Source: Candidatus Omnitrophota bacterium (GTDB lineage Bacteria > Omnitrophota > Omnitrophia > Omnitrophales > JACROU01). Taken from it: a stretch of 64,000 bases of DNA. Below are positions 12,113 through 13,939 of the stretch, in pieces; position 1 is the stretch's first letter; each line of letters opens with the position of its first letter. Location of the stretch: the NCBI GenBank assembly GCA_016214265.1, contig JACROU010000024.1, positions 5,223 through 69,222 on the forward strand. Direction: 5' to 3'. The notes under the pieces were generated by a model. That model did not search any database. It saw nothing but the letters and a program-made list of their open reading frames with translations, and was not told the origin of the DNA. The translations under genes and the position numbers were made by a program.

Positions 12113-12160
12113 ACAAAAAAAACAAAAAAAAATTCCCCCTGCGTCCAGTCTACCTCTTGC
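12113..12160 (-). repeat. Partial second copy of the terminator/promoter-like intergenic element (conserved loop, one stem arm and T-tract; first stem arm missing).
   Basis: aaaaaaaattccccctgcgtccagtctacctcttgcc here is about 85% identical to aaaaaaaattccccccgcgcccaatcttcctcttgcc at 13872. Both are preceded on the plus strand by (a/t)gtcaa, which is TTGAC on the minus strand. No partner arm ggacgcagggggaatt is found nearby. Confidence 0.5.
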
Positions 12161-12215
12161 CGATTAAATCACTACCTGGCTGATTTTTCTCTTGCGGCTG
12201 TGAATTTCCGTTCAG

Positions 12216-13658
12216 TTAAAAAAACAGCAGAAAAATGGACAGTGGGATAAAAAGCAGGTTTTTATCTTCAGGTGTTTTCTTAAAGATACTCTTTGTCACA
12301 ACAATACCCGAAGTCTGCCCATATTCCTTCATAAAGTACCTAATCGCATGAAGATCGTCCACCGAATCCCGGTATTTAACTTCAATGGGTAAATATCGTT
12401 TCCCGCCTACATGGACAACAAAATCAAGCTCCCGCCGGGCATCTTTATAAAAAGTAAGTTCAATGGCGCCCTCAAATTGCCGGAGCGCGTTGAATACCAA
12501 ATTTTCAGCATAAAAACCCATGATGGTCGAATCTTCTAAAAGATTCTCATTCAGCTTAAAAATCGCGTTGCGCAAAGCCAAATCGACCAGATAACATTTC
12601 ACGCTGCCCCGTCTGAACTTTAGGGGCCGTTTTGAAAATCGCGGTAAGGTTTTCACCAAATCCGTCATTTCCAGAAGAGGTAGATATTTTTCGAGCATGG
12701 CGCGGCTCACGCCAATCCGTTGTGATGACTTTTCAATATTAATTCCCTGACCGGGCTGCTCAACTAATGACAGATAGTAACTTTTAATTTTTTCCGGCTT
12801 TCGAAACTCAGTCGCAATAACAAGATCCTCAAAAATAACCTTCTGAACCTGGTTATCGAAGAGATATTCTTGCCTTCTCACAATATCTTTAATCTCCCAC
12901 GCCTCTGGAAAACCGCCTTCAATAAAATAAGTGTTTAACTGCCTGTTTAGCTCTTCGAACACTCGTCCAGATACACTGAGAGGCCCAGCTTCAGAATGGA
13001 TTGCTTTCCAATCGAGGACGGTATCCCGCTGTAATTTGTATCCGAAATCATGGGCATGTTTCACAAAATCAAGCAACTCTTGATCGTCCGATTTATGAAA
13101 GTAAACAAATTCCTTAAATGAAAAAGGTGAAAGGTGGTTATCCTTGATCCGTCCTAATAAACTCTCACGGCTTTTTCGGAATATCGGCGAAGATGCAGAG
13201 CCAGAAACAACAAATCGTACCGAAAATCCCAAATCGTAATATTTTTTTAGATAGCGCTCCCAGAGTTCAAATTTTTGAATTTCATCAAGGAAAAAATAGA
13301 CCGTTTGACTTTTATGTGTCACGTCAGCCCATTTGATCAATTCATCAAAAAATCGCTCCCCAACATAGGGCTCCGCCATTAAGGGATCGTCAAAAGAAAA
13401 ATAAATGATCTCGTTTGGTTTTGCGTGACCGTCGCGGATCAGCGCTTGAATGACTTGCTTCAAAATGGTGGTTTTACCTACTCTCCTGGGGCCGGTGATG
13501 GAAATAATTTGTTTGAGCGATAAGAGATCTTTGTAAATTTTATGAAAGATGGGGCGTTTAAAGACTTCTGTTTTAACTTCGCCGCTTTCCCACCAGGGAT
13601 TATAGGGAGTAAGTATTTCTCTTATCGTTGGAATGTTGTTCAATTTATCCTTGGTCAT
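12216..13658 (-). CDS. AAA+ superfamily ATPase of the COG1373 / AAA_14 + DUF4143 type. Predicted cytoplasmic.
   Basis: ORF from the track, 480 aa. Walker A ITGPRRVGKTTILKQ lies about 55 aa from the N-terminus. The hydrophobic Walker B YFFLDEIQ and the overall length and N-terminal pattern (NPWW...I.G.R.VGKTT) match the widespread DUF4143-containing predicted ATPases. ATG at 13658 has a GAGGA Shine-Dalgarno 4 nt upstream. No signal peptide. Confidence 0.9.
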   Translation of the reverse strand: MTKDKLNNIPTIREILTPYNPWWESGEVKTEVFKRPIFHKIYKDLLSLKQIISITGPRRVGKTTILKQVIQALIRDGHAKPNEIIYFSFDDPLMAEPYVGERFFDELIKWADVTHKSQTVYFFLDEIQKFELWERYLKKYYDLGFSVRFVVSGSASSPIFRKSRESLLGRIKDNHLSPFSFKEFVYFHKSDDQELLDFVKHAHDFGYKLQRDTVLDWKAIHSEAGPLSVSGRVFEELNRQLNTYFIEGGFPEAWEIKDIVRRQEYLFDNQVQKVIFEDLVIATEFRKPEKIKSYYLSLVEQPGQGINIEKSSQRIGVSRAMLEKYLPLLEMTDLVKTLPRFSKRPLKFRRGSVKCYLVDLALRNAIFKLNENLLEDSTIMGFYAENLVFNALRQFEGAIELTFYKDARRELDFVVHVGGKRYLPIEVKYRDSVDDLHAIRYFMKEYGQTSGIVVTKSIFKKTPEDKNLLFIPLSIFLLFF

Positions 13659-13670
13659 GTTTCCTCATGT

Positions 13671-13702
13671 AAGTTTATGTAATATATATATTACATAAAC
13701 TT
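13671..13702. promoter_or_regulatory. 32-bp perfect palindrome AAGTTTATGTAATATATATATTACATAAACTT abutting the ribosome-binding site of the ATPase gene. Putative operator.
   Basis: The sequence equals its own reverse complement over 32 nt. It ends 12 nt upstream of the gene C ATG (...aaacttACATGAGGAAACatg) and overlaps the candidate -10 (TAATAT, complement of 13688..13693). Confidence 0.5.
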
Positions 13703-13715
13703 TATATTATTGCAA
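13688..13715 (-). promoter_or_regulatory. Candidate promoter for gene C (TTGCAA-N16-TAATAT), overlapped by the palindrome.
   Basis: On the minus strand, TTGCAA is 13710..13715, the spacer is taatataaagtttatg (16 nt), and TAATAT is the complement of 13688..13693. The predicted +1 falls inside the palindrome, about 30 nt before the ATG. Confidence 0.35.
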
Positions 13716-13871
13716 GTATTTTTATCTAAAAGGGTTAGAATGCTATTAAATCTCATTTCCTTTACCAAAACAGGCAAAACGTAGTTCTTCTCTGAGTCAA
13801 GCAAGCGCGTAGCACGATTTCCAGCTCTTGTTGAGATTAGCATTTTGAATCTTCATCGACTGTCAATAATC

Positions 13872-13939
13872 AAAAAAAATTCCCCCCGCGCCCAATCTTC
13901 CTCTTGCCTGTTTATTAATAGGAAGGCGTGGGGGGAATT
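13872..13939 (-). terminator. Rho-independent terminator immediately downstream of the giant gene D.
   Basis: The minus-strand RNA reads AAUUCCCCCCACGCC, then a 32-nt loop, then GGCGCGGGGGGAAUU followed by UUUUUUUG. The stem is 15 bp with one A.C mismatch and has a G/C core. It starts about 30 nt after the gene D stop (13970..13972). The loop is longer than typical. Confidence 0.6.

Follow-up and report, generated by a model that had tools for sequence, protein, structure and literature searches.

A PDC-S01 ATPase-nuclease gene among giant genes of an Omnitrophota bacterium: a probable single-gene cassette with a long target duplication

The locus described here raises the question of how a single gene of 480 amino acids (aa) came to lie between giant genes, with the same short sequence on both sides of it, and how its expression may be controlled. 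The window, as we call the whole stretch of DNA analyzed, comprises 64,000 nucleotides (nt) from Candidatus Omnitrophota bacterium (GenBank assembly GCA_016214265.1, contig JACROU010000024.1, positions 5,223 to 69,222), and all of its features described below lie on its minus strand and are given in its own coordinates. Five co-directional open reading frames (ORFs) were listed in the window, four of them giant, and the fifth, the 480-aa gene, encodes an ATPase with a predicted nuclease domain (12216..13658) and is placed between a resident gene of 14,531 aa upstream and another of 1,952 aa downstream. A first-pass annotation of this DNA had pointed to an element of about 60 bp on both sides of the ATPase gene and to a perfect palindrome before its start codon, and had read the former as the mark of an inserted cassette and the latter as a repressor operator. 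Our results suggest that the segment 12162-13859 is probably a horizontally acquired single-gene cassette, which carries its own promoter and operator and was inserted with a long target duplication. Insertion at the window locus itself is proposed by analogy with related loci, because relatives of the 1,952-aa protein do not exceed 26% identity and no empty site was found.

The ATPase-nuclease gene and the repeat that flanks it

The 480-aa protein contains an AAA_14 domain (residues 49-184, 3.9e-32, 111.4 bits; Pfam cutoff 27) and, C-terminal to it, a DUF4143 domain (residues 284-430, 4.4e-27, 95.2 bits; Pfam cutoff 28.1), which is classed within the PD-(D/E)XK nuclease superfamily (PMC3424549). 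In PADLOC, the protein matched PDC-S01 with the profile PDLC04787 (E = 2.9e-56 over residues 29-477), and six other PDC-S01 profiles matched too. The Walker A motif G56-P-R-R-x-G-K62-x-T64, the Walker B residues D125-E126, and the nuclease motif D412...E426-V-K428 were invariant in 32 homologs. In its domain architecture, its match to hidden Markov models, and its intact ATPase and nuclease motifs, the protein conforms to PDC-S01, a family in which an ATPase is joined to a PD-(D/E)XK domain and which has been reported as a candidate single-gene defence system and as the fourth most common type of prokaryotic defence, being very widespread and frequently transferred horizontally (PMC12988326). 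The role of PDC-S01 in defence is that of a candidate.

The element of about 60 bp was found on both sides of the ATPase gene, at or near the positions at which it had been reported. The segments 12118-12161 and 13865-13908 are 84% identical over 44 nt without a gap (37/44), and a gapped alignment widens the repeat to 13861-13908 (copy 1) and 12102-12161 (copy 2), that is, to 48-60 nt with the structure GGCAAGAGG...GGGGGAA, T run, and TTGAC(A/T). The element can also be written GGCAAGAGG...GGGGGAATTTTTTTT. In a permutation test with both spacers, the best 44-mer matched at 37/44 positions against a shuffle maximum of 28, and the best 29-mer outside the T run at 25/29 against a shuffle maximum of 22; neither value was reached in any of 3000 shuffles. 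The search for further copies that the first-pass annotation had proposed, carried out within the 64-kb window, returned the element twice, even with 3 mismatches allowed, and the palindrome once. A degenerate 36-mer built from both repeat copies had 2 occurrences in the 64 kb, with 0 expected from shuffles.

The two copies carry different parts of the transcription signals of the resident genes. The signals discussed in this study, terminator and promoters alike, are fold and consensus predictions. Copy 1 (13861..13908) consists of part of a hairpin loop, the 3' arm, the T run, and an orphan -35-like TTGACA (13861-13866), for which inspection of the sequence revealed no acceptable -10 at 16-18 nt. 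It forms part of an intrinsic-terminator-like hairpin (13872..13939), which lies 30 nt past the stop codon of the 14,531-aa gene and was recognized from its inverted repeat and from RNA folding. The arms of this hairpin (13925-13939 and 13878-13892) are 15 nt long and 93% complementary and are followed by U8 (an A run at 13872-13879 on the plus strand), and the fold reached -29.6 kcal/mol (z = -3.5), a value not equaled in any of 200 shuffles. Since its loop exceeds the 8-nt limit of the consensus terminator scan, copy 1 was missed by that scan and seen in the fold. Copy 2 (12102..12161) has part of the loop, the 3' arm, and a lengthened T run without the 5' arm, and it ends in TTGACT (12102-12107), which is the -35 of the 1,952-aa gene. 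The promoter-like site of that gene (12079..12107) was found by consensus scan and consists of TTGACT, a 17-nt spacer, and TGcTATCTT, with 9/12 consensus matches and the TG of an extended -10. A stable G+C-rich hairpin with a U run, as expected of a predicted terminator, was present at copy 1 (z = -3.5) and absent at copy 2 (z about +1), which bears out the earlier statement that the hairpin is intact downstream of the giant gene and has lost its first arm in the other copy. The intact hairpin occurs in copy 1 only, and the intact promoter follows copy 2 only.

Mobility of the gene and repeats at related loci

Relatives of the ATPase were gathered by protein look-ups and by scans of genome and metagenome contigs, and the comparison loci that bear relatives or controls are referred to by L-numbers. 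An exact-sequence look-up of the ATPase gave no identical record. The nearest relative, at 94% aa identity, was found in a metagenome-assembled genome (MAG) of Omnitrophica, and the next ones stood at 88% and lower. After removal of redundancy, the relatives occupied about 15 unrelated contexts in several phyla, in MAGs labelled Omnitrophota, Elusimicrobiota, and Planctomycetota. Their neighbours include GH77, holB, an RND efflux pump beside GST, and an AAA_11/12 helicase, and one relative occupies a slot between PAPS reductase and ATP sulfurylase in a sulfate-assimilation cluster. Others lie next to hsdM with AbiGi-like and RelE genes near, to RadC, HsdM, and TIR genes, or to Fic and SIR2 genes. 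Giant genes were never found beside the nearest relatives in the loci fetched.

Pairwise blastn between the contexts revealed 80-91% DNA identity over a segment whose 5' edge lies 64-145 nt before the ATG and whose 3' edge is the stop codon or a point 12 nt beyond, and for the window cassette compared with the other loci the homology starts at -64 to -92 from the ATG. This sharply bounded homology indicates that promoter, palindrome, and gene move as one unit. The unit of the window is 88-91% DNA-identical to copies in other genomes, whereas the neighbouring 1,952-aa protein reaches at most 26% identity to any relative. In addition, the G+C content of the ATPase gene is 0.41, compared with 0.45-0.50 in the neighbouring genes. 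Known plasmid and phage collections contained only relatives at or below 27% identity, and viral contigs contained no relatives of the ATPase. A distant AAA_14-DUF4143 homolog on plasmid pACLO of Arcobacter cloacae (L035, 59787-61046) was annotated between cas3 and cas4 in a CRISPR-Cas locus.

Flanking direct repeats were also observed around relatives of the ATPase gene, each made of local sequence. In L001, L002, and L012 the repeat measures 171 nt, is 89-91% identical between copies, and covers the spacer and the first 18 codons of GH77; in L011 it measures 80 nt (92.5%) and covers the first 27 codons of an HTH_17 gene, with the upstream copy intact. The repeat of L018 comprises 41 nt (95%) of sequence upstream of holB, and that of L023 comprises 62 nt in three copies, corresponding to the first 20 codons of hsdM. 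By identical criteria, flanking repeats were found in 5/13 ATPase contexts and at 2/72 other genes of the same loci (Fisher p = 7e-4). With four more contexts added, the count was 5/16 (p = 0.002), or 6/16 if the weak 28-nt case of L032 is included. The bounded unit in about 15 contexts, the lower G+C content, and the enrichment of repeats over control genes together support the inserted-cassette reading of the first-pass annotation. The one strong positive among the controls is a SoFic-type Fic gene in L026 (6628-7923; PADLOC SoFic, E = 3.7e-44), which follows gcvT. Its flanking direct repeat consists of the gcvT 3' end, and reading frame and stop codon are preserved in the downstream copy.

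The coding copies of these repeats differ by 16 synonymous and 5 nonsynonymous codons, the latter mostly conservative. The excess of synonymous differences has a binomial P of 1e-8 against the 18% expected from random change, and of 6e-5 against 33%, which is our own estimate for one selected and one neutral copy. With this bias, the extra copies resemble pieces of another functional allele more than decayed fresh duplications, which points to recombination between alleles as the origin of the repeat copies.

Two other origins were considered and rejected. A simple target-site duplication followed by neutral decay was discarded for the coding repeats because of their mostly synonymous differences. 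A transposon or insertion sequence was rejected on account of the lack of terminal inverted repeats at the unit ends, the lack of a transposase domain, and the repeat lengths of 41-171 nt or absence of repeats. Likewise, a transposase of fixed geometry does not fit repeats that are variable or absent and separated by gaps from the ends of a unit without terminal inverted repeats.

Individual loci provided further observations. In L011 (1628-3781), the HTH_17 gene whose start is repeated is excisionase-like and encodes 66 aa; its downstream copy is broken, and 6/6 differences are synonymous. L023 (3115-5491) has the order hsdM fragment, 187-aa ORF with no known function, fragment, ATPase cassette, and full type I hsdM, with AbiGi-like and RelE genes near, and it looks like two successive cassette insertions at one gene start. 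L001 and L003, which have the same ATPase and the same GH77 downstream, come from near-identical strains (99% over 4 kb) and diverge abruptly 129 nt upstream of the ATG. To the left of this break, one strain has a GT9 gene without a repeat and the other a second ATPase with the 171-nt repeat, which points to a recent rearrangement at the left edge of the cassette. The second PDC-S01 gene of L001 (8223-9651; 382 aa + 79 aa, probably frameshifted) is unrelated in DNA sequence and lies directly upstream of the cassette; a different, imperfect palindrome of its own, TATTTCATTCTTGCAAATTAGAAATA, is located 19-44 nt ahead of its start. A tandem gene duplication in L001 was rejected, given that the repeats are 89-91% identical and that no DNA similarity could be detected between the two ATPase genes.

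Long target duplication was reportedly first described by Nobusato et al. in 2000 for restriction-modification (R-M) genes of Helicobacter pylori. In a later survey, R-M genes of all types were found inserted with long target duplications, defined by direct repeats >30 bp and by an insert without mobility genes, with repeats that in many cases reached into an adjoining gene at its end (Furuta, Abe and Kobayashi 2010, PMC2853133). An empty site with the sequence in single copy in a related genome, and a repeat that is not a high-copy element, also belong to that definition. In the window, the repeat measures 48-60 nt, and the insert of 1.7 kb, well inside the <20 kb considered there, contains no mobility gene. 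The present cases resemble those of R-M genes in that a small defence-type unit without transposase or integrase is flanked by direct repeats >30 bp of local sequence, and in that these repeats are long, variable, often include the end of a neighbouring gene, and are enriched over average genes. The cargo differs, being a single ATPase-nuclease without methyltransferase (or the SoFic gene in L026) and not an R-M system. Moreover, the copies described here are 84-95% identical, with mainly synonymous differences in the coding ones, whereas those of the published R-M cases are mostly near-identical. As a mechanism of long target duplication, double-strand breakage by the products of the inserted genes was suggested (PMC2853133).

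The unit may also be compared with other mobile gene cassettes that have their own promoters. Phage morons are independent promoter-gene units inserted between resident genes. The ATPase cassette is similar to morons as a self-contained transcription unit in a spacer between co-directional resident genes whose signals are undisrupted, but it is chromosomal and not in a prophage, lacks its own terminator, and has no close relatives on viral contigs or in the phage collection.

A candidate operator over the predicted promoter

The perfect palindrome of 32 bp (16 + 16) lies at 13671..13702 and has the half-sites TTTATGTAA and TTACATAAA with 8 nt between them. As first reported, it ends 12 nt before the ATG at 13658 and overlaps the predicted -10. 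It has 1 occurrence in the window even with 3 mismatches, and its core motif is also unique there. A -35-like TTGCAA was found at 13710..13715, and hexamers of the type TTGCAA/TTGACA/TTTACA are conserved at equal distance from the palindrome in most loci. The -10-like TAATAT (13688..13693), a consensus match 16 nt after this -35 that came from a promoter scan anchored on the palindrome, falls in the left half of the palindrome. The Shine-Dalgarno-like GAGGAAA (13660..13666), which is separated from the ATG by the C at 13659 and has similar counterparts in homologs, lies between the palindrome and the ATG, so the earlier placement of the palindrome over the ribosome-binding site had to be corrected.

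The core of the palindrome, TATG-N14-CATA, was present in 22/23 loci: 21 have it at -37 to -51 from the ATG, and L016 has it at -144. It was missing only from L018, an outlier at 50% identity. Across 18 distinct upstream sequences, the TTATG/CATAA positions are invariant and their spacing is constant, and the central 6-8 nt vary and are often asymmetric. Predicted promoters occur in three registers relative to this core. In the largest group, which includes the window, a -35 (TTGCAA/TTGACA/TTTACA) lies 18 nt upstream of the core and the -10 lies inside the left arm; in L023, L028, and L032, the palindrome follows directly on a near-consensus TTGACA-16-TATAAT; and in L015 and L016, the right arm itself supplies the -35 (TTTACA). 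The assignment is less clean in L001, L003, L011, L013, and L026, where the top-scoring promoter match falls outside the three registers, although in the first four of these a TTGCAA-like hexamer is nonetheless conserved at -18. Given the three registers, in which most loci would transcribe one arm at most, a DNA operator that occludes RNA polymerase fits these arrangements and an RNA hairpin does not. Conserved half-sites, fixed spacing, and overlap with the predicted core promoter were all found, as would be expected of an operator that overlaps a promoter. These comparisons support the palindrome as a gene-specific predicted DNA operator that travels with the cassette. Of the original repressor-operator proposal, the operator part stands, with conservation in 22/23 loci and a position that overlaps or abuts the promoter match, and the locus-specific part does not, for the operator belongs to the gene and not to this locus.

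The palindrome might instead act as RNA, in the form of a hairpin in the 5' untranslated region that affects translation or stability, or be bound by a global regulator of the host; we regard this alternative as improbable. The RNA of the palindrome does fold (-13.3 kcal/mol, z = -4.5), and L023, L028, and L032, where the -10 lies upstream, would transcribe the whole palindrome. However, in most loci, including the window, the best -10 sits inside the left arm, so that only one arm would be transcribed, and the palindromes of L015 and L016, which overlap the -35, would not be transcribed at all. The arms are also conserved in sequence beyond complementarity, with the variable and often asymmetric center noted above, and the hairpin excludes the ribosome-binding site. 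A search of Rfam returned only sub-threshold noise from eukaryotic miRNA and snoRNA families. A host regulator would accord with the lack of covariation between operator and winged helix, and with homologs at or below 50% identity that keep the winged helix without the operator, but such a regulator would have to be shared by MAGs labelled Omnitrophota, Elusimicrobiota, and Planctomycetota.

The sole protein that always accompanies the operator is the ATPase itself. In the AlphaFold2 model of this protein (pLDDT 78, pTM 0.78), residues ~288-352, between ATPase and nuclease, form a helix-strand-helix-helix arrangement followed by a low-confidence wing-like stretch, and we predict this segment to be a winged helix. 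The region is nearly invariant throughout the subfamily. A Foldseek search against the PDB returned generic AAA+ proteins, including Cdc6/Orc1, which combine an AAA+ domain with a winged helix, and no close homolog. The PDB sequence search gave only a P-loop match to RecA and no solved homolog, and NCBIfam had no model for the protein. We tentatively propose that a dimer of the cassette's own winged helix could bind the operator and repress the gene, an idea to which we give slightly less than an even chance.

Mobile genes under operator control are known from the C-protein/C-box control of R-M systems and from the autoregulated promoters of toxin-antitoxin systems. The arrangement described here is similar in that a potentially self-toxic gene is accompanied in its moves by an inverted repeat of fixed spacing that overlaps its core promoter. 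It differs in that the unit has no separate controller gene, the only candidate binder being the predicted winged helix of the effector. Among distant homologs, the search for upstream palindromes was positive only for the second ATPase of L001, and hence the family as a whole does not share a palindromic operator. Within PDC-S01, the conserved operator is a trait of the present subfamily (at least about 67% identity). The operator motif also occurred in 13 viral stretches, none near a homolog, which is about the chance level for an AT-rich 18-base pattern according to a rough estimate that was not computed with a tool. In most loci, a TAAC(C/T)C motif precedes the -35 and lies ~40 nt upstream of the operator core, or ~80 nt before the ATG (~13734-13739 in the window), and in L014 and L029 pairing of this motif with a GGGTT directly ahead of the -35 yields a small inverted repeat.

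Proposed arrival of the cassette, and its resident neighbours

We propose the following sequence of events for the window. The ancestral spacer would have consisted of the stop codon of the giant gene, the hairpin, the T run, TTGAC(A/T), 17 nt, and TGcTATCTT, followed by the 1,952-aa gene. The cassette would have brought its own sigma-70-type promoter, with the operator TTTATGTAA-N8-TTACATAAA overlapping the -10 and the likely transcription start. The repeat would have arisen along with the insertion, leaving ~50-60 nt of resident spacer (the 3' half of the terminator, the T run, and the -35 of the next gene) on both sides of the cassette. Because this part of the spacer is duplicated on both sides, the giant gene would keep its full terminator, now followed by an orphan -35, and the downstream gene would keep its full promoter behind half a hairpin. 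The cassette may have arrived as a circle, formed from cassette and one repeat by recombination between repeats, that re-integrated by a single crossover at the orthologous site of a related strain; alternatively, a duplication may have been followed by allelic replacement of one copy. Autorepression would then keep the level of a potentially toxic nuclease low. No terminator hairpin was detected after the ATPase gene (12162..12215), where the fold is not significant, and read-through into the 1,952-aa gene is therefore likely when the cassette promoter fires.

Several observations weigh against this reading. The repeats do not abut the conserved unit, from which ~110 nt separate them at its 5' end and 54 nt at its 3' end, and the two copies in the window are only 84% identical and non-coding, hence beyond the reach of the codon test. 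Of the 16 contexts, 10-11 have no flanking repeat, which indicates that the duplication is not an obligatory product of the insertion mechanism. An empty site for the window locus was not found, the N-terminal 700 aa of the 1,952-aa protein giving two matches, at 26%, among 5.8 billion proteins. Winged helix and operator are both invariant, so no covariation supports autorepression, and L018 (50% identity) and the distant plasmid homologs do not have this operator. Moreover, the one PDC-S01 representative assayed in E. coli did not belong to the candidates that gave protection against T4, T5, or T7 (bioRxiv 10.1101/2024.09.26.614923). The operator could explain the absence of a phenotype in such heterologous tests, if the gene is kept repressed. 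As for the empty site of the GH77 locus, P0124 is a contig-end fragment without upstream DNA, and P0123 (L034), the nearest GH77 ortholog without the ATPase, has a cold-shock gene and a terminator upstream and a spacer too diverged to align with the repeat.

The repeat copies could also belong to a dispersed, genome-wide family of terminators or repetitive extragenic palindromic-like elements, with the ATPase gene merely lying between two members, the second of them decayed. This is improbable in our assessment, even though copy 1 looks like a functional terminator by prediction, the spacer 57566-57770 also has a T run with TTGACAG, chance insertion between repeated sequences is a class recognized by Furuta et al. 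(PMC2853133), and the intergenic regions of this genome inspected besides were only three, a point that also counts against the cassette reading. Against a dispersed family, only two copies occur in 64 kb even with 3 mismatches, and neither the spacer 57566-57770 nor the region downstream of 6176 has the GGCAAGAGG...GGGGG core. Copy 2 starts inside the hairpin loop, as a duplication breakpoint would and an independent terminator would not, and four other loci are flanked by different and clearly single-copy sequence such as the 5' ends of genes. Still farther from our preference, as very improbable, stands the view that the ATPase is native to the giant-gene cluster, for example as a helper of assembly or secretion, and that the repeat reflects a regulatory unit duplicated locally, which provides the gene with expression signals of its own. 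The gene indeed shares the direction of four huge genes, occupies a short spacer, and may be co-transcribed with the downstream gene for want of a terminator. Nevertheless, its nearest relatives were never found beside giant genes in the fetched loci, its DNA is 88-91% identical elsewhere while the neighbour has no relative above 26%, its G+C content is lower, and an ATPase joined to a nuclease of the restriction-endonuclease fold is the make-up of a candidate defence family.

A different account of the repeat is that the ATPase-nuclease itself makes a staggered cut, so that the repeat is a target-site duplication, the gene a self-mobilising selfish element, and the palindrome its recognition site in cis. 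The PD-(D/E)XK site is intact and accompanied by a predicted DNA-binding domain, the unit moves without any other mobility gene, flanking repeats are enriched, and breakage by the inserted genes' own products is what Furuta et al. suggest. We nonetheless consider this account unlikely, and more so than a dispersed family, since the repeats are 41-171 nt long and absent in 10-11/16 contexts, do not abut the unit ends, and are accompanied neither by terminal inverted repeats nor by a second palindrome at the 3' end. The coding copies differ mostly synonymously, unlike a fresh duplication in neutral decay, and the SoFic gene, which has no nuclease, presents the same pattern. The fullest version of this idea, to which we give a slightly lower probability again, treats AAA_14-DUF4143 (PDC-S01) genes as autonomous selfish elements, in which the winged helix would read the palindrome, the nuclease would break the target and leave long variable duplications at gene boundaries, and the repeats would permit loop-out circles that re-integrate in new hosts. 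If true, it would provide the missing mechanism for long target duplication and for the spread of single-gene defence cassettes without recombinases. On balance, a horizontally acquired cassette inserted with a long target duplication is the account that we prefer as probable.

For the arrival of defence genes without recombinases at new chromosomal sites, the R-M genes offer a pattern that has been known since 2000. Both kinds of phenomenon at this locus, the PDC-S01 candidate defence gene and the insertion with long target duplication, are already known. The modest novelty lies in a conserved predicted operator that overlaps the promoter in a PDC-S01 subfamily, and, again modestly, in the allele-like divergence of the duplicated segments; the literature searched contained nothing on the regulation or mode of insertion of PDC-S01. 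These results extend the pattern of long target duplication to a SoFic gene as well as to PDC-S01, which ranks among the most abundant families of candidate defence genes. The resemblance of the duplicated segments to two functional alleles directs attention to homologous recombination with a related genome and away from a staggered cut. The locus itself is ordinary for the insertion of a defence gene, and it is the pattern across the family that makes an old mode of gene mobility tractable. Furthermore, the giant-gene cluster tolerates a foreign transcription unit that may read through into the next giant gene.

Giant genes in Omnitrophota have been described previously (bioRxiv 10.1101/2023.11.21.568195). 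In the window, the resident gene upstream of the ATPase (13970..57565, with its stop codon at 13970-13972) encodes the 14,531-aa protein, which has RHS_repeat matches in its N-terminal third. The 1,952-aa gene downstream of the ATPase (6176..12034) has neither a Pfam domain nor a close homolog. Of the two remaining ORFs, one begins at 5973, continues past the window start, and encodes at least 1,991 aa (1-5973), and the other encodes 1,879 aa (57771-63410) without a Pfam domain.

The insert contains two segments that are peculiar to it. The 3' flank (12162..12215) begins where homology to other loci stops, at the stop codon of the ATPase gene, and the 5' flank (13751..13860) is common to no other locus and overlaps most of a 50-codon ORF (13691-13843). 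This ORF, situated between repeat copy 1 and the ATPase start and overlapping the cassette promoter and operator, is the only other ORF of at least 50 aa in the 1.7-kb insert outside the ATPase gene; it had no match in PADLOC and could be a remnant of the donor context. In the spacer 57566-57770, which separates the giant gene from the 1,879-aa gene, a T run is directly followed by TTGACAG, and compact junctions of terminator and -35 seem to be a habit of this genome.

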